NCBI GenBank assembly: GCA_964641255.1
Contig: CAZXMM010000001.1
Coordinates: 332,302-396,301 of the forward strand
Reading direction: 5' to 3'
Source: an uncultured Gammaproteobacteria bacterium
GTDB lineage: Bacteria > Patescibacteriota > Microgenomatia > JAMCZE01
Length of the DNA stretch: 64,000 nucleotides
In this document: positions 8,160 to 20,037 of the stretch, one piece after another
Position numbering within the stretch: the first letter of the stretch is position 1
Layout: each line of letters opens with the position of its first letter
The notes under the pieces: model-generated
What the model was told of the DNA's origin: nothing
What the model saw: the letters and a program-made list of their open reading frames with translations, nothing else
Databases searched by the model: none
Position numbers and translations under genes: made by a program

Positions 8160-8795
8160 TTAAATTTCAATAATTATGTTTTCCTGGGGAACAGTAAATG
8201 CTATTCCCTGGGATTTTAGGATTGTCTCCGGAAGCGTGTGGGTTGACCCTAGTGCCCGAAGCATTCCATCATGGACAGGGAAAGCCTGTTTGGGTTTAAT
8301 TTCCAGAGCGTAATCAATGGACTCAGACAGTTTGAGCCAAGGACCAGCTACCGGCAGGGCCAGAAGTTCAAGCTCTTTCTTAGGGTTAAAAAGACAATCG
8401 CCGGGATAAAAGAACTTTTCGTTAAAGAAATAGCCAGTATTATCAACGGGGGTGATTGTTCGATAAATTTCCGCGTGTTTTTGTCCAAAACCCTCAATAC
8501 GTAGGCCATTCAAACTAACACTTTGCCCGTGTTCTAGAAGTTGAGTCTTTATTCCTAAGAGAGCGAGTTTTGCTGTGACACCCCGATTAGTTATAACTTT
8601 AGCTCGGGGATTTTTAAGAAGAATGGTTCTCAATGAGTCTTCGTGAAAATGATCGGGGTGTTCGTGGGTAAAAAGAACGTAATCAATTTGTTCCAATTCA
8701 TTTTGCCCGGTCGTAAATATACCAGGATCGGTAAGAATCCTCAGACTAGCCTCCTCAATTAGTAAGCAGCAGCGACCGATTTTAGTAATTTTCAT
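8160..8795 (-). CDS. MBL-fold metallo-hydrolase
   Basis: HxHxDH motif (FTHEHPDHF) plus downstream His/Asp ligands; 211 aa. Confidence 0.75.
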   Translation of the reverse strand: MKITKIGRCCLLIEEASLRILTDPGIFTTGQNELEQIDYVLFTHEHPDHFHEDSLRTILLKNPRAKVITNRGVTAKLALLGIKTQLLEHGQSVSLNGLRIEGFGQKHAEIYRTITPVDNTGYFFNEKFFYPGDCLFNPKKELELLALPVAGPWLKLSESIDYALEIKPKQAFPVHDGMLRALGSTHTLPETILKSQGIAFTVPQENIIIEI

Positions 8796-8797
8796 AG

Positions 8798-9256
8798 TTA
8801 CTTAGTCAAATATTTTTCTTCCCAGGCTTTGATCACTGCTAGCGCCTCTGTTTCGTATTCTGGAACATATAATCTTTGAATGGGTTCGTTAAAAGAATCG
8901 ACAAGTTCACTTGTTGGAGAATGGGTCTCGTAGTAATCACCGGAGACCCTTGATTTTGGAACCGCGTATACGATTCGTCTTAGCTCTGACCAGTACGCAA
9001 CCCCAATACACATCAGGCATGACTCTAGTCCAATATACAAAGTGGCTCCCCGCAATGGCCCGATTTTGTTAAAAGCGGTAGTGATTGCCTTAGAGTCTGC
9101 ATGAAATAGACTTGGGTACGGACTACTAACTTCTGAAGCAATTATTTCACTATCTTTAACGATAATTGCCCCCGCAGGAAATCTACCCTCCTCAAACGAT
9201 TTGTGTGAGTTGGCAACCGCCATTTTTAAATAGTCCAAGTCGCTAGTGGTTAACAT
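8798..9256 (-). CDS. CDA-fold nucleoside/nucleotide deaminase-like protein with H-A-D variant of the zinc motif
   Basis: FHADSKAI (HAE-like, Glu replaced by Asp) and ESCLMC (PCxxC) zinc-binding motifs; paralog of 10142..10642. Confidence 0.55.
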   Translation of the reverse strand: MLTTSDLDYLKMAVANSHKSFEEGRFPAGAIIVKDSEIIASEVSSPYPSLFHADSKAITTAFNKIGPLRGATLYIGLESCLMCIGVAYWSELRRIVYAVPKSRVSGDYYETHSPTSELVDSFNEPIQRLYVPEYETEALAVIKAWEEKYLTK

Positions 9257-9274
9257 ACTAAGTCATTAATCTCA

Positions 9275-9829
9275 TTACAGGGCCGTTCTCTCAAAATATT
9301 CTAGCAGGTTGTTGAGAGGTGACTCTTTGCCAAGTTCTTTAGCAATTGGTAGGTAGTATTGGGTGGTTTCATTATAGTAATCCTGTTTTGCTTTTCTGTC
9401 AGTATAAAACGACGACCCGGTTAAGTTATCCAGTCGATCGGCTAGTTTAATGGTTAGAACAGCAGAGCGAATAGTTGGATTCTTACATTGGTGCATTCTA
9501 GCAAAGTATTCCGCTGTGTCCTTGGGATCAAACCCTTTATAGCCTTTCTTCTTGGTACAAAGATCCACTATTTCGGCGACAGTATTCCCAAAATTTTCTT
9601 TGACGTCACCCAGGGTGTAGGGTGTGTCCTCAATTACGTCGTGAAGAATGGCGGAAGTGAGGACTTCGTTTGACGATTGGCCCCAGTAAATGCACGTTTT
9701 ATAGACCGAATAGAGGTGCGTCCAATAGAGTTCTTTTCCCTGGGGCAGCGGAGAAAAGATGCGATAACGTTCTGGCTCGAGTTGGTAAACTAGGTCAAAG
9801 GCCTTTTGGATGCTTGTAGTCATGATCAA
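9275..9829 (-). CDS. small alarmone hydrolase (Mesh1/SpoT-hydrolase-like HD domain)
   Basis: ILHDVIEDT ... IKLADRLDNL closely match the (p)ppGpp hydrolase HD-domain signature of RelA/SpoT and SAH proteins; no synthetase domain. Confidence 0.7.
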   Translation of the reverse strand: MIMTTSIQKAFDLVYQLEPERYRIFSPLPQGKELYWTHLYSVYKTCIYWGQSSNEVLTSAILHDVIEDTPYTLGDVKENFGNTVAEIVDLCTKKKGYKGFDPKDTAEYFARMHQCKNPTIRSAVLTIKLADRLDNLTGSSFYTDRKAKQDYYNETTQYYLPIAKELGKESPLNNLLEYFERTAL

Positions 9830-10089
9830 TTATACGCTTCGTCGATATAACACCACCTCCAGCTTTCTCCTGGTTCGAATGATTGAATGATTGGATGGCC
9901 TGTTAAGTCAAAATGCTTCGTAGCGTGTTGGTTTTTAGAACTGTCACAACAACCAACGTGACCACAAATTAGGCAGAGGCGAAGATGTACCCACTCGTCG
10001 CCACTCTTGAGACATTCCTCACACCCATTAGGTGTCTTTGGTTTACTAGTGAGTGTTATCTGGGAGAGATGAGAACAGGATTTTTCCAT
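9826..10089 (-). CDS. UBP-type zinc finger (zf-UBP) protein
   Basis: CEECL...WVHLRLCLICGHVGCCDSSKNQHATKHFDLTGHPI...WRWCYIDE matches zf-UBP; internal Met (M48 of track ORF) used as start because the longer ORF overlaps the upstream deaminase gene; stop overlaps SAH start by 4 nt. Confidence 0.65.
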   Translation of the reverse strand: MEKSCSHLSQITLTSKPKTPNGCEECLKSGDEWVHLRLCLICGHVGCCDSSKNQHATKHFDLTGHPIIQSFEPGESWRWCYIDEAYN

Positions 10090-10141
10090 AAGTACTTTTG
10101 TGTCATTGCTGTCCCCATTATTAAGTCCCGTGGACAGTGCG

Positions 10142-10642
10142 TCAAGTAGAAAGTGGCGATGATAAAAGATTGCGCATAGACTTTTCAAATATACTTGAGA
10201 ACTCTTTTTCATACTGTGACAGGTGAACAAGTTCGATGGGTTGAGTAAACGACTCAGCCACCCTTTTCTTGTTGACTGTCATGGTGTCAGACATCCAGGG
10301 AATCTGTTTAACGTATCTTTTGGCGGGGATTATATAGGCAAGTTGCGTATAGCCAGCTTGAGAACAAGCACTCAGACACATTAAACATGGCTCCACAATT
10401 GATACCATGGTTAGTCCTTTGGTTTGATTTGAACGTCTACTCTTGCACACTTGTTCCACGAGTAAACGTTCTGAATGGGCGGTGGCGTCACAATTAGACA
10501 CGACCAGGCTTTCTGAAGACGCAAGTATTTTCCCTCTATCTAATACCAAACCGGCATTAGCGAGATTACCTTTATGGGCAGACGCCCTAGAGAGGTTCTT
10601 AAGGACTTTTCGTTGTTCTCGGGTGAGTTGGACTTTTGCCAT
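10142..10642 (-). CDS. CDA-fold nucleoside/tRNA deaminase-like protein
   Basis: AHSE and EPCLMC zinc-binding motifs of cytidine/dCMP/TadA-type deaminases; 166 aa. Confidence 0.6.
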   Translation of the reverse strand: MAKVQLTREQRKVLKNLSRASAHKGNLANAGLVLDRGKILASSESLVVSNCDATAHSERLLVEQVCKSRRSNQTKGLTMVSIVEPCLMCLSACSQAGYTQLAYIIPAKRYVKQIPWMSDTMTVNKKRVAESFTQPIELVHLSQYEKEFSSIFEKSMRNLLSSPLST

Positions 10643-10643
10643 G

Positions 10644-10661
10644 GGCCAATCCTAATTGGCC
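10644..10661. promoter_or_regulatory. perfect 7-bp inverted repeat GGCCAAT-ccta-ATTGGCC abutting the start codon of the deaminase gene
   Basis: Read directly; on the coding (minus) strand the hairpin/operator ends 2 nt before ATG. Confidence 0.3.
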
Positions 10662-10739
10662 TTAGGTTTTCTCTCAAGTGAACACCCCTTCACCTAGTCT
10701 AAATTCGTGCCTAAAGTGGGGTATGGTAGGTCTTAGAAA

Positions 10740-11435
10740 TTACCGTCGCTCCCTCGGTTGTGGGTTTTTTGAAAAGAACGCGACCACGTCCTTCGTGTTG
10801 TCGTAAGCGGGTTTTGCACTCAGTAGTTCCTCAGGAGTCAGCCAAGAGAGCTTGCCTTCGTAACTCTTTGGTTTTAACTCTCCACTCGGATTAAAGCAGT
10901 AGTAGGTAAGCATGAGAGCGTGCCGAATAATCTCATCGTCCTTACTTTTGAACAACACCTCAATTATAAGAGGCAGCGCTAAATTTCCTGTAAGGCCTAA
11001 CTCATTTAGAGCGTCTTGAGCCGAGTTAAGGACATAAGTATTTTGTTAAGTAGAAAAGTAGGGCAGGCCCGTGTAGCCGAGAAATGGTTGGCTGTCCCTT
11101 TGTACTACTGCTACCTTTCCCTCCTTTTCAATGTACAACATGATTCCAGAGTGAAGAGGAAGGTTTCCCCAACTGGGAATATCAGTGAAGTAGGCAATTA
11201 GGACTTTACCCTTGTCAGTGATAGTATACGTCCCGGCAACTTTGTCATGAGTGACAAGACCGAGGTCCTGTAATTTATCTAGGTGATAGGTAAATCTTTT
11301 GGGATCCATAAGTTTTGGTTTGATTTCATTAAACCGGGAGGAAGCGCTCAGGGACATCGCTCTTAAAATTCTCCACTGGACTTGGTGAATTTTGGGTAGG
11401 GCTTCGCCAGTAGGAACCGCTATCTTACCAGTCAT
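10740..11435 (-). pseudogene. wHTH + Nudix-like (inverted NrtR-like) gene interrupted by a single in-frame TAA at 11046..11048
   Basis: Track ORFs 11046..11435 (winged helix then start of Nudix fold) and 10740..10958 (Nudix tail) are in the same frame; the 87-nt gap translates without stops (QNTYVLNSAQDALNELGLTG...) and contains the Nudix-box region. Confidence 0.45.
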
Positions 11436-11437
11436 TT

Positions 11438-12418
11438 TCAGTTATTTTTACGTTCCTGTTTTTTATGTAACAATAGGTCTTCCACTTGACTCAGGCTCTT
11501 ACACTCCATCAGTTGTTGTCTTAGTTCGTTTGCCCCCCTGAAGTCTTTAATATACATCTTAAAGAACTTTTTCATTACTTCAAAGTTCTTCTCTTTTCCC
11601 CAGGTCTTATCATACATCCTTAAGTGATCCAGAAGCACTGAGACATATTCCTCTTGGGTGTGCAAGCTTGGTACTGGAGTTTTGTCAAAAGCCCAGGGGT
11701 TCCAAAATATCCCCCTGCCGATCATTATCCCGTCAACCTGGTAGGTCTCTTGCATATCTTTGGCCATGGCAAAGCCAGTAACATCGCCGTTGCCAATTAC
11801 GATAGTCTCAGGCGCTATTTTATTCTTAATTTTTACTACTGTTCCAATTTCTTCCCAATTAGCTGGAACCTTAGAAAGTTGAGCTGCTGTTCTTCCGTGA
11901 ATAATCAGAGCCGAAAGGTGTTGTTCAAGGAGGTGGGTAGTCCAACTCTCAGTGATTATGCTGTCAAAACCAATCCTCGTTTTAACACTGACGGGGAGGG
12001 GTCCAGCTCCTTCTTTAACCGCTTGGATAATTTCTTTAGCTAGAGAGGGATTCTTGATCAAACCAGCTCCTGCCCCTTTGTTAGCTACTTCCCGGACGGG
12101 ACAGCCCATATTGATATCAACTCCGTCAAATCCCATGTCTCGCGCGAGAGCCGCGGCACTGTTCATAGTTTTTGGATTAGTACCAAATATTTGTGCCACG
12201 ATGGGGTGTTGATTTTTACTAAATTTAAATTTTCTAACCACGATCTCGTGACCTTTGGAGAAGAGCCCATCCGCGCTGGTAAATTCAGTGAAAAATACAT
12301 CGGGCTTAGGTAGTCTCGTGGCCATAATTTCCCGAAAGGCAAAATCAGTGACGTCTTCCATGGGGGCCAACACGAGAAAGGGTTTGGGAAGCGTGTTCCA
12401 GAAGGACCGCCTACTCAT
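11438..12418 (-). CDS. dus: tRNA-dihydrouridine synthase
   Basis: LAPMEDVTD...VDINMGCP...K catalytic pattern of Dus family TIM barrel; 326 aa. Confidence 0.85.
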   Translation of the reverse strand: MSRRSFWNTLPKPFLVLAPMEDVTDFAFREIMATRLPKPDVFFTEFTSADGLFSKGHEIVVRKFKFSKNQHPIVAQIFGTNPKTMNSAAALARDMGFDGVDINMGCPVREVANKGAGAGLIKNPSLAKEIIQAVKEGAGPLPVSVKTRIGFDSIITESWTTHLLEQHLSALIIHGRTAAQLSKVPANWEEIGTVVKIKNKIAPETIVIGNGDVTGFAMAKDMQETYQVDGIMIGRGIFWNPWAFDKTPVPSLHTQEEYVSVLLDHLRMYDKTWGKEKNFEVMKKFFKMYIKDFRGANELRQQLMECKSLSQVEDLLLHKKQERKNN

Positions 12419-17906: not shown

Positions 17907-17973
17907 GAAAAGATTCTATCAGAAGTCCGAACATTGTACAGACCTTATCAAATTTCGTACCTAAACTCTCAGG

Positions 17974-18044
17974 CTGCGGGACTTGGATTCGAACCAAGAT
18001 AAACGGATTCAGAGTCCGTTGTCCTACCATTAGACGATCCCGCA
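17974..18044 (-). tRNA. tRNA-Gln (anticodon CUG), CCA not encoded
   Basis: Manually folded: 7-bp acceptor (TGCGGGA/TCCCGCA), D arm GTCT/GGAC, anticodon stem ACGGA/TCCGT with loop CTCTGAA, T arm CTTGG-TTCGAAT-CCAAG; discriminator G. Confidence 0.8.
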
Positions 18045-18082: not shown

Positions 18083-18481
18083 ATGGCTCATGTAGTTGCT
18101 GCTGTTATTTACAGAGAAGGTGCTAATGGGCAGAAGGAATACCTGCTCGTGAGTACCAAAAAAAATTGGGGCAAACAAACGGGATTCCTTCAACCGACCG
18201 CCGGTCATATGGAGACAGGGGAGACCGAGGAAGAAGCTTTAAAACGGGAGGTACAGGAAGAATTAGGAGTGGGAATAAAATCTTTCCGGAAACTACTCGA
18301 CCTGCCCGGAGATGTTCCCAATTACACTGTCCATTGGTGGGAATGCGAATTGGCGCATTTTGATTTTACAATTAAGGAAGATGAAATCAGTAAAACTTAT
18401 TGGCTAACAAAAAGTGAACTTACTTATCGTAGCGACGTGTGGCCTGCCACTAAAAAGTTTTTTTTGAAATTTCTTAGCTGA
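18083..18481 (+). CDS. NUDIX hydrolase
   Basis: Nudix box GHMETGETEEEALKREVQEELGV. Confidence 0.8.
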   Translation: MAHVVAAVIYREGANGQKEYLLVSTKKNWGKQTGFLQPTAGHMETGETEEEALKREVQEELGVGIKSFRKLLDLPGDVPNYTVHWWECELAHFDFTIKEDEISKTYWLTKSELTYRSDVWPATKKFFLKFLS

Positions 18482-18647: not shown

Positions 18648-18675
18648 TTGACAATTGTACATAACTATGTACAAT
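18648..18675 (+). promoter_or_regulatory. sigma70-like promoter (TTGACA-N16-TACAAT) with embedded perfect palindrome TTGTACATA-ac-TATGTACAA (putative TA operator)
   Basis: Read directly; -10 ends 6 nt before the antitoxin ATG (18682), implying a leaderless or near-leaderless transcript. Confidence 0.5.
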
Positions 18676-18681
18676 AAAAAT

Positions 18682-18936
18682 ATGTCTAACACTCTCTCTA
18701 TTTCTGATGCTCGAGCAATACTGCCAGATCTTGTTTCTAAGGTTAGTGATGGTCTGTCTCGTTTTACCATCACTGTCAGTGGCCAACCCAAAGCCATGCT
18801 CATTAGTGCTGAGGAATTGGAATCTCTGGAAGAAACGGCAGAGATTTTGGCTATTCCGGGGATGAAAAAGAGCATTCTTCGGGGACTGAAGGAAGCAAAA
18901 AAGGGTAAAGGCGTGCCACTATCAGATTTGAGTTAA
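18682..18936 (+). CDS. type II toxin-antitoxin system Phd/YefM family antitoxin
   Basis: Phd/YefM-like N-terminus (SISDARAILPDLVSKV) and acidic C-terminal tail; immediately upstream of RelE-like gene; upstream in-frame start codons lie inside the promoter so the M at 18682 is used. Confidence 0.7.
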   Translation: MSNTLSISDARAILPDLVSKVSDGLSRFTITVSGQPKAMLISAEELESLEETAEILAIPGMKKSILRGLKEAKKGKGVPLSDLS

Positions 18937-18943
18937 TTTACTC

Positions 18944-19192
18944 ATGGAAGTACTACTTTTCCCCACGGCAAAAAAACAGTACGACAAACTTTCAAAATTT
19001 GACCGGGAAAAGATTAAGAAAAAACTCCAGTTCATTGCGCAATTTCCATTGGACGGGAAAAAACTTTCTGGAGAATTTGCAGAAACCAGGTCGGTCAGAG
19101 CTTGGCCGTACAGGATAATTTACCAGATTGATTCAAAAGGAAAAAGGATCCTAGTCGTCACAATTGGCCACAGACAAGGAGTGTATAAATGA
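18944..19192 (+). CDS. type II toxin-antitoxin system RelE/ParE family toxin
   Basis: 82 aa, RelE/ParE-like pattern (K..KK....P..G..L.G......R...YRIIY.ID....I.V..IGHR); 7 nt after antitoxin. Confidence 0.7.
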   Translation: MEVLLFPTAKKQYDKLSKFDREKIKKKLQFIAQFPLDGKKLSGEFAETRSVRAWPYRIIYQIDSKGKRILVVTIGHRQGVYK

Positions 19193-20037
19193 CATGGTTT
19201 CTGTTTGCCATTTTTTCCTTAATTTGCTTTACTGCTTACGATCTCCTCAGTCGCAAGCTCAGTGTTGATAGTGCTAACCCACGAGCTCTAGCGGTCCTGT
19301 TTAATTTTTTGGTCGCTATCATGAGTCCTATGCTTCTGCTTCTAGAACCATTGCATGCCATTTCTTTGCCTCCGATGGTCATTCTTTTTTCCCTGGGTAG
19401 TTTTGTTGCCTGGACACTATTCAGTCGCGCAGAATTTTATGCTCATAAATATGTTGAGGCTTCAACACTGAGCATAATTCTCAAGTTAGCTCCAGCGCTG
19501 ACACTAATTTACGGAGTGATTTTCTTCGGTGAATCTTTTGGCGCAGCTAAGCTTTTTGGTATTACCCTCATTATCTTATCCAATATCTATCTTATCTGGG
19601 TAACGGAGGGGAGAGGGTTTAAGATTAATAAGGGACTCATATTTGCTCTCGTTGTAGCTGTCTGTCTAAGTGTGGGCTGGACCTTTGATAAGATCGTATC
19701 ACCCTATTTTGGTTTAGTTGCCTTTACTTTTATCAGTTTTAGCATTCCCACGGTTGTAAACTGTTCCATCCCACCACTATCAATAAAAGTACTACTTGCC
19801 GAGCTCAGTCGAACTTCTTGGAGACTGATTGTTCTCGCTTTTGTTTTAACCCTGGCGTACGCATTTCTTATTAAAAGTCTTATGCTTGGAGAGACATCTC
19901 GGGTAACACCAATGGCAACCTCAACGACACCTTTAGTGGTTCTTCTATCCATGGTTTTTCTGCAAGAACGAGATCACCTGTGGACGAAGCTGACCGTTGC
20001 TGCGGTAACAGTGGTGGGAATTTTTCTTCTCAGTTAA
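19189..20037 (+). CDS. EamA/DMT family transporter
   Basis: 10 predicted TM helices in two EamA-like halves. Confidence 0.7.
   Translation: MTWFLFAIFSLICFTAYDLLSRKLSVDSANPRALAVLFNFLVAIMSPMLLLLEPLHAISLPPMVILFSLGSFVAWTLFSRAEFYAHKYVEASTLSIILKLAPALTLIYGVIFFGESFGAAKLFGITLIILSNIYLIWVTEGRGFKINKGLIFALVVAVCLSVGWTFDKIVSPYFGLVAFTFISFSIPTVVNCSIPPLSIKVLLAELSRTSWRLIVLAFVLTLAYAFLIKSLMLGETSRVTPMATSTTPLVVLLSMVFLQERDHLWTKLTVAAVTVVGIFLLS

Follow-up and report, generated by a model that had tools for sequence, protein, structure and literature searches.

NrtR regulators hold their effector, ADP-ribose or a related molecule, in the pocket of a Nudix domain and release DNA in response, and the solved Nudix regulators of this type dimerise through the same domain. 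The family was described as Nudix-related transcriptional regulators (Rodionov et al. 2008, PMC2330246; structures 3gz5, 3gz6 and 3gz8), with AraR forming one of its branches (BtAraR, PMC4666351, 5bs6). Here we describe a gene in which a winged helix-turn-helix (wHTH) precedes a Nudix-like domain, found on the minus strand of a 64,000-nt stretch of contig CAZXMM010000001.1 (assembly GCA_964641255.1, positions 332,302 to 396,301), termed the window below. The literature that we found describes only the NrtR order, Nudix then wHTH. The gene carries a premature stop codon and, near its end, a frameshift. Our reading, to which we assign a probability of about 65%, is that it is a recently inactivated one-component regulator of the Candidate Phyla Radiation (CPR) with a palindromic operator and a deaminase gene as target, and that its control has been lost. 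To our knowledge, transcriptional regulation in CPR bacteria (Patescibacteria) is almost unstudied.

The gene and its parts, with residues numbered from its ATG, are as follows:
11435..10711, minus strand: the whole wHTH-Nudix-like regulator remnant, with ATG at 11435..11433, the ancestral stop TAG at 10713..10711 and two lesions
11190..11384, minus strand: winged helix-turn-helix, residues about 18-82
10714..11156, minus strand: Nudix-fold domain with a degenerate Nudix box, residues about 94 to the C-terminus, containing both lesions
11046..11048, minus strand: premature stop TAA at codon 130, a sense codon in homologues and TAA also in the Logan assembly L005
10764..10770, minus strand: probable site of a 1-nt deletion, an A6 run (10770..10765) plus C, the frame being swapped between about 10772 and 10750
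10740..10742, minus strand: out-of-frame TAA reached via the frameshift, the end of the 10958..10740 open reading frame (ORF) by the ORF list and translation

Two ORFs of the program-made list, 11435..11046 (129 aa, ATG start, TAA stop) and 10958..10740 (72 aa, GTG start), lie in a common frame on the minus strand. A first-pass annotation, made from the sequence alone, had read the pair as one fusion gene split by a single in-frame TAA, with no further stop in the 87-nt gap. Re-translation agrees: the gap translates as QNTYVLNSAQDALNELGLTGNLALPLIIE, and 11435..10740 gives 231 codons with one internal stop, the TAA at 11048..11046. The TAA is thus the only internal stop of that interval, but the annotation overlooked the second lesion, the frameshift near 10770..10764.

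The joined product matches 12 full-length relatives of 235-246 aa across the stop (E = 1e-93 to 2e-61, identity 44-66%, query coverage 90-97%), whose sources are named Candidatus Shapirobacteria, Microgenomates-group bacterium or Patescibacteria, and the remnant is collinear with these proteins over its full length. At the stop column the 12 relatives have Q, K, E, R, V or S, the closest orthologue using the codon CAG, and the 87-nt 'spacer' is conserved coding sequence that includes the family-invariant residues A139, G147, L148, G150, L154, I157 and E159. Because the orthologues are single continuous proteins in which the stop column holds a sense codon, the two ORFs are, by sequence comparison, one ancestral gene. 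The comparison with orthologues that the annotation had proposed thus supports its claim of a split gene; it found no two-protein arrangement.

Toward the end of the gene the last frame-0 codons (..FFSKNPQPRERR and stop) diverge from the family C-terminus GxTxISKxYHTPM. Agreement with the family runs in frame 0 up to ..FFSK and in the -1 frame from KK onward; the latter reads KKPTTEGATVISKTYHTPL (..ISKTYHTPL), stops at the TAG of 10713..10711, fits the family C-terminus and equals the orthologue's SKKQARSGVTIISKVYHTPM in length. The A6 run 10770..10765 is probably the simplest site for the 1-nt deletion. Since the frameshift cuts off the conserved C-terminus, the remnant is delimited as 11435..10711 and not as 11435..10740. 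The deletion site reads A_AAA_AAC (10770..10764, zero-frame codons tcA AAA AAC), formally an X_XXY_YYZ heptamer, and no stimulatory structure was found 3′ of it (minimum free energy -5.5 kcal/mol, z = +1.33). A programmed -1 frameshift was considered and found unsupported, there being no downstream structure and no conservation of the shift, as homologues are all in frame.

Both lesions recur in the Logan assembly of SRR14932608, where a 78-kb contig (L005) shows 0 mismatches over 6390 nt that include both sites; a paper on genomic and metagenomic data from South America names this run as a metagenome-derived dataset. Long ORFs fill the window densely. Among about 60 ORFs checked no further gene is broken, and the short ones looked at proved to be complete small genes (Phd/ParE, GreA, a stand-alone Nudix); the dense long ORFs and complete short genes rule out a general problem of assembly quality. 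TAA terminates 36 of the 62 long ORFs in the window, where it is the commonest stop codon, and for this reason its reassignment under an alternative code is ruled out. The window's tRNAs are only Gln-CTG and Glu-CTC, without a suppressor tRNA in these 64 kb of about 950 kb. Beyond the stop the gene retains all 19 of 19 family-invariant columns, against 3 conservative substitutions in the 27 invariant columns that precede it, and its ratio of C-terminal to N-terminal identity is 0.97 (0.85-1.01 in intact homologues). Given that no further decay is seen, either the inactivation is very young or the lesions are not real; two lesions in one gene and none elsewhere would fit a real pseudogene and not scattered errors. 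A recent pseudogene is our best reading, with lesions of ordinary type that need no special mechanism, and we infer that they are real in the organism's DNA.

The domains were assigned with profiles and with an AlphaFold2 model of the orthologue P0001 (predicted local distance difference test score 78.7). Residues 16-80 of the model form helices 16-26, 33-36 and 43-55, strands 59-62 and 67-70, and helix 72-80, an H-H-H-beta-beta topology, followed by a flexible linker and then an alpha/beta domain. Against Pfam and NCBIfam the joined product had no Nudix match and only weak matches to wHTH models, below threshold (HTH_45 at 6e-4, HxlR at 5e-3, also DUF7347). A profile of the close family reaches the HxlR-type regulator QsrR (4hqm) in the PDB at 0.013. 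Among 56 sampled distant relatives, DUF7347 is matched in 30 (best 5e-9), HTH_45 in 25 and the Nudix model PF00293 in 41. By the weak HTH_45/HxlR/DUF7347 resemblance, the QsrR match and the topology of the model, the N-terminus is a winged helix, as first annotated.

Foldseek comparison of the P0001 model with the PDB returned 301 matches at E<=1e-3, of which the top 50 are all Nudix proteins, led by 3fk9 (MutT; E=2e-8, TM score 0.75 on the target) and including the NrtR Nudix domain 3gz8 (5e-7). By profile, 3fk9 is matched at 1.5e-4 with the close family and at 4e-16 with the broad family. The annotation had proposed a hidden Markov model search of the joined product, and in this its expectation was not borne out: PF00293 is not matched by the joined product even at E<=10, P0001 gives no PF00293 match either, and the Pfam model of the NrtR-type C-terminal wHTH is likewise unmatched by the joined product at E<=10, so that the Nudix call rests on family profiles and structure. 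Membership of the Nudix superfamily is, on the model, a matter of fold, and at the sequence level of transitive homology only. No solved structure among the PDB profile matches spans both domains. The order, wHTH at about 18-82 and Nudix from about 94 to the end, is reversed relative to NrtR, as the annotation had stated.

Distant relatives keep a canonical Nudix box, GKxxxGEx7REUxEETGL, with PF00293 matches down to 4.6e-20. In the clade of the window gene the box reads G-LPYfxT-xxx-(E/T)-FVxxSAxxxL-xELGL: the R and the EE pair of REUxEE are lost, with the first E variable, the second E absent and a one-residue deletion in the alignment, so the catalytic box GX5EX7REUXEEXGU is not present in this clade. 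Since the box is degenerate and PF00293 is unmatched by both the window protein and P0001, hydrolase activity appears unlikely in the clade. A C-terminal Nudix fold with a degenerate box, the annotation's other structural claim, therefore agrees with the 3fk9 match and with the PF00293 matches of the distant relatives. Its placement of the stop inside the Nudix box is right by homology, because alignment with relatives that keep the canonical box puts the TAA at position x3 of the Gx5E segment.

Directly downstream of the regulator the minus strand carries, in order of transcription:
10678..10693, no strand assigned: candidate operator, palindrome GTGAA-N6-TTCAC, minus-strand sequence GTGAAGGGGTGTTCAC
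10649..10677, minus strand: promoter-like element of the deaminase gene, reading TTGAGA-17-TAGGAT; the ATG follows the -10 after 6 nt, a leaderless geometry
10644..10661, minus strand: hairpin GGCCAAT-TAGG-ATTGGCC enclosing the -10-like hexamer, ending 1 nt before the deaminase ATG
10142..10642, minus strand: intact zinc deaminase of the cytidine/dCMP-deaminase fold (PF00383 at 6e-11), with HSE and PCLMC motifs

The palindrome occurs a single time in the window, even with one mismatch allowed. In 17 of 18 related loci it is likewise found exactly once, each time immediately 3′ of the regulator gene. Across about 10 lineages its arms are invariant, unlike the N6 spacer and the flanks; Dojkabacteria have an N5 variant, and the locus L019 has GTG-N10-CAC. 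In the related loci it is directly followed by TTGAGA or TTGAAT, 16-18 nt and a TAnnAT-like hexamer. The promoter-like element of the window scores 9 of 12 matches and alone is not significant; matching geometry is found in L001 (TTGAGA-17-TATAAT-7-ATG), L007, L008, L011, L013 and L014. Microgenomates-type lineages have 6-7 nt between the -10-like hexamer and the ATG, with the operator centre at about -43.5. Hairpins stand at the equivalent place in six lineages (window, L001, L007, L008/L013, L011 and L014), with differing stems and z = -1.9 to -3.6, and end 0-3 nt before the deaminase AUG; RNAalifold gave no in-register consensus for them, so they are hairpins of individual sequences only. 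Such a hairpin might block the AUG, which has no Shine-Dalgarno sequence, on read-through transcripts, leaving only the leaderless transcript in use. As a terminator the palindrome was ruled out, having a 5-bp A/T-rich stem and no T-run. From its sequence context, the palindrome is presumably bound by the wHTH-Nudix regulator.

A PF00383 gene of 144-166 aa follows the regulator on the same strand in the window and in L001, L011, L012, L013, L014, L016 and L019, including the Dojkabacteria locus L016, where the regulator is 29% identical. The window deaminase is 62% identical to its L001 counterpart over the full length, and in the PDB it comes nearest to TadA (1wwr, 2e-7) and to guanine/guanosine deaminases (3e-5). 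The upstream neighbour changes with every lineage: dus in the window, and elsewhere DUF3175, TrmB-like, PMT_2, MFS, Asp/Glu racemase-like or pyruvate kinase genes. Since these neighbours differ in each lineage, the link to dus drawn by the annotation falls and dus is ruled out as a functional partner; on the comparative evidence the conserved partner and target gene is presumably the downstream deaminase. The regulator starts 0-3 nt after the upstream gene or overlaps it (window 11433..11440; L001 6001..6004; L014 3501..3504; L011 3498..3501), and no copy of the palindrome lies 5′ of the regulator in the window or in the L001, L011 and L014 loci. The regulator thus seems to be without its own promoter, with no sign of autoregulation through the palindrome. 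A defence system was also considered for the pair and rejected, as PADLOC gave no matches.

In the model that we propose, the N-terminal winged helix of the intact protein (about 240 aa) would bind DNA, and the C-terminal Nudix-fold domain, having lost its catalytic box, would probably sense a small nucleotide-like ligand. A dimer would bind GTGAA-N6-TTCAC where this abuts the -35 of the deaminase promoter, and the level of ligand would set deaminase expression via binding to the palindrome. A ligand-released repressor, as in NrtR, is somewhat favoured over an activator, since both hexamers, the -35 and the -10, are good and the footprint of a wHTH dimer would cover the -35; a class-II-type activator is possible. 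In the window genome a C-to-T-type change would have created the TAA at codon 130 and a 1-nt deletion would have occurred at or near the A-run, destroying the sensor domain, and the 129-aa remnant would keep the wHTH, probably without proper folding or dimerisation. As the operator, promoter and deaminase gene remain intact there, the deaminase is presumably now expressed without control by the regulator.

Several observations weigh against this reading as a whole. No closer relative or strain with an intact allele was found above 66% identity in the genome and metagenome contig collections. The absence of decay 3′ of the stop is predicted equally by sequencing error or recoding, and both assemblies may derive from the same reads, in which case a systematic read error is possible. 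The tie between regulator and operator consists only of co-location and co-conservation, and with its centre at about -43.5 the operator would fit an activator too. The Dojkabacteria locus retains both the gene pair and the palindrome (with N5 spacing) despite the loss of the zinc ligands, so that what is regulated may not be deamination in every lineage. In L018 (3433..3530, the lineage of P0016) the palindrome and a TTGAAT-18-TAGAAT element precede an EamA-like transporter gene, with no deaminase.

The first-pass annotation had left three options for the stop, a recent pseudogene, a sequencing error or low-level readthrough; the reproduced lesions and the use of TAA as the main stop codon favour the pseudogene, disfavour the sequencing error and make readthrough unlikely. 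An intact gene in the organism, with the TAA and the missing A as sequencing or consensus errors of the deposited assembly, is improbable, though the least improbable of the rival readings. It would account for conservation beyond the stop and frameshift as good as in intact homologues and for the place of one lesion in or beside a homopolymer, and no second strain turned up for comparison in the collections searched. It must however contend with a separate 78-kb Logan contig, a length that implies accurate reads, identical at both sites and over 6.4 kb, with the lack of any other broken gene among about 60 ORFs of the window, and with a C/T substitution that is atypical of assembly errors; two random errors in one 0.7-kb gene of 64 kb would be a coincidence of roughly 1%. 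The 129-aa product might instead still be made, as a remodelled, ligand-blind DNA binder consisting of a complete winged helix and two orphan beta-strands. Its ATG, wHTH and candidate operator are intact and public collections list it as a protein (P0007, from a 950,062-bp NCBI contig and the Logan assembly), but a palindromic operator implies a dimer, for which the Nudix domain would be needed as in the solved NrtR regulators, and the leftover Nudix strands would be unfolded. No natural short form among the listed members was shown to be complete, P0029 being another frameshifted copy, and we give this version little credence.

Recoding would have the ribosome read through the TAA-C and then shift by -1 on the A_AAA_AAC heptamer, yielding a low level of full-length regulator. 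The needed shift is exactly -1, the site has the formal heptamer pattern, and coding potential is wholly kept beyond both lesions; a deletion within an A-run, however, automatically leaves a slippery-looking run. The stop or shift is present in 0 of the 12 close and about 150 listed distant homologues, TAA is the window's main stop codon, no suppressor tRNA lies within the 64 kb and no structure follows the heptamer. Readthrough of UAA in bacteria occurs at about 1e-4 to 1e-3, AAC is a poor partner for a -1 shift, and the two inefficient events would multiply, which makes recoding very improbable. In a last reading each ORF is a genuine gene in its own right, one for a small wHTH protein and the other for a small C-terminal protein. 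The ORF list has both, the second with its GTG start, but the orthologues are all single and collinear across the junction, the spacer is conserved coding sequence with invariant residues, and the 72-aa ORF is missing from the protein collection searched; we attach practically no weight to this reading. We keep to a recent pseudogene.

The family itself extends well beyond the window. With clusters formed at 50% identity, an exhaustive profile search yielded 875 at E<=1e-3 and 322 at E<=1e-10; the cluster members listed are nearly all 220-240 aa long and span both domains, and those looked up are labelled 'hypothetical protein' by their sources. We put forward, as a proposal evenly poised between right and wrong, that this is an undescribed one-component family (wHTH plus C-terminal Nudix sensor, at least 875 clusters at 50% identity) which lost Nudix catalysis in Microgenomates/Dojkabacteria-type CPR and there serves as a dedicated deaminase switch through an invariant GTGAA-N6-TTCAC abutting the -35 of a leaderless promoter. 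A second, independently broken copy lies in L019 (862..1541, Logan SRR7802038_479): residues 14-146 of P0001 match frame 1 and 144-234 match frame 3, placing a frameshift near the LGLKG motif, and a deaminase gene follows, with the variant palindrome AAAGTGTATAGATATACACTTT ahead of it. This copy hints at recurrent loss, or else at an assembly error in its contig. A distant member, P0030 in L015 (2331..3771), has a nearly canonical Nudix box and no palindrome, and stands directly after a YfbR-like HD-domain gene (PF12917/HD_3, a nucleotide phosphohydrolase family); by gene context, the wider wHTH-Nudix family may accompany other nucleotide-metabolism genes. In the Dojkabacteria locus (L016, 3744..4235) the 'deaminase' lacks both PCxxC cysteines (EPSLMTLS) and has HAD in place of HxE, and judged from these motifs it is probably catalytically inactive.

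Other features of the window, all on the margin of the subject, are:
10230..9826, minus strand: zf-UBP zinc-finger protein, downstream of the deaminase
9829..9275, minus strand: stand-alone RelA/SpoT-type HD_4 hydrolase, downstream of the deaminase
9256..8798, minus strand: second, better TadA-like deaminase, downstream of the deaminase
8795..8160, minus strand: metallo-beta-lactamase-fold hydrolase, downstream of the deaminase
17972..18044, minus strand: tRNA-Gln(CTG)
18083..18481, plus strand: canonical stand-alone Nudix hydrolase
18655..19192, plus strand: Phd/YefM-ParE toxin-antitoxin pair

In other lineages none of the small genes of 8160..10230 is conserved beside the regulator. Further EamA genes are found close to the regulator-deaminase pair of L011 and of L013, and at 19189..20037 of the window.

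The stop itself is ordinary gene decay, and the interest lies in the family of intact relatives: comparative sequence is enough to read from them a regulator, its probable operator, a promoter and a target gene. If our reading is right, this is among the few regulator-operator-target units read directly from CPR genomes. It would mean that a Nudix enzyme domain turned into a non-catalytic sensor for a second time, in a domain order opposite to that of NrtR, and the still catalytic-looking relatives would allow comparison with the degenerate-box clade. The ligand and the deaminase substrate would then reveal which step of nucleotide salvage is controlled in these reduced genomes, with the natural knock-out of the window genome as a ready comparison.

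Compared with ordinary bacterial pseudogenes, the gene shows the familiar features: a nonsense codon at a position coding for Gln/Lys/Glu, an indel of 1 nt at an A-run, intact orthologues elsewhere and, in another lineage, a second, independently frameshifted copy (L019). It differs in that further decay is not detectable, as expected of a very young event. With canonical Nudix hydrolases (PF00293; MutT-like 3fk9, MTH1) it shares the fold (Foldseek E=2e-8, TM 0.75 on 3fk9) and distant wHTH-Nudix members retain the GKxxxGEx7REUxEETGL box, whereas the clade of the window gene has lost R and EE along with one residue. Its N-terminal 90 residues have the wHTH topology of HxlR/QsrR-type, MarR-like winged-helix regulators and a weak profile similarity to them; the matches are all below curated thresholds, and in those regulators sensing is by the wHTH dimer itself (e.g. 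through cysteines), with no appended Nudix domain.

NrtR and AraR remain the nearest in design. They too are one-component regulators that join a Nudix-fold effector domain, often non-catalytic, to a winged helix, and that use a palindromic operator (here a candidate) adjoining a metabolic target gene; the Nudix domain of the P0001 model superposes on that of NrtR (3gz8, E=5e-7), and the family profile matches 3gz8, 3gz5 and the AraR structure 5bs6. In contrast, the wHTH is N-terminal here and the Nudix domain C-terminal; the wHTH resembles HxlR/HTH_45/DUF7347 and not the C-terminal wHTH of NrtR; the target is a PF00383 deaminase gene in place of NAD or arabinose genes; and the operator GTGAA-N6-TTCAC is specific to this family, whose host range as seen is CPR bacteria. 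With the order reversed and with wHTH type, operator and target all different, the family of the window gene looks, on this comparison, to work like NrtR and AraR without being a member of the NrtR family.

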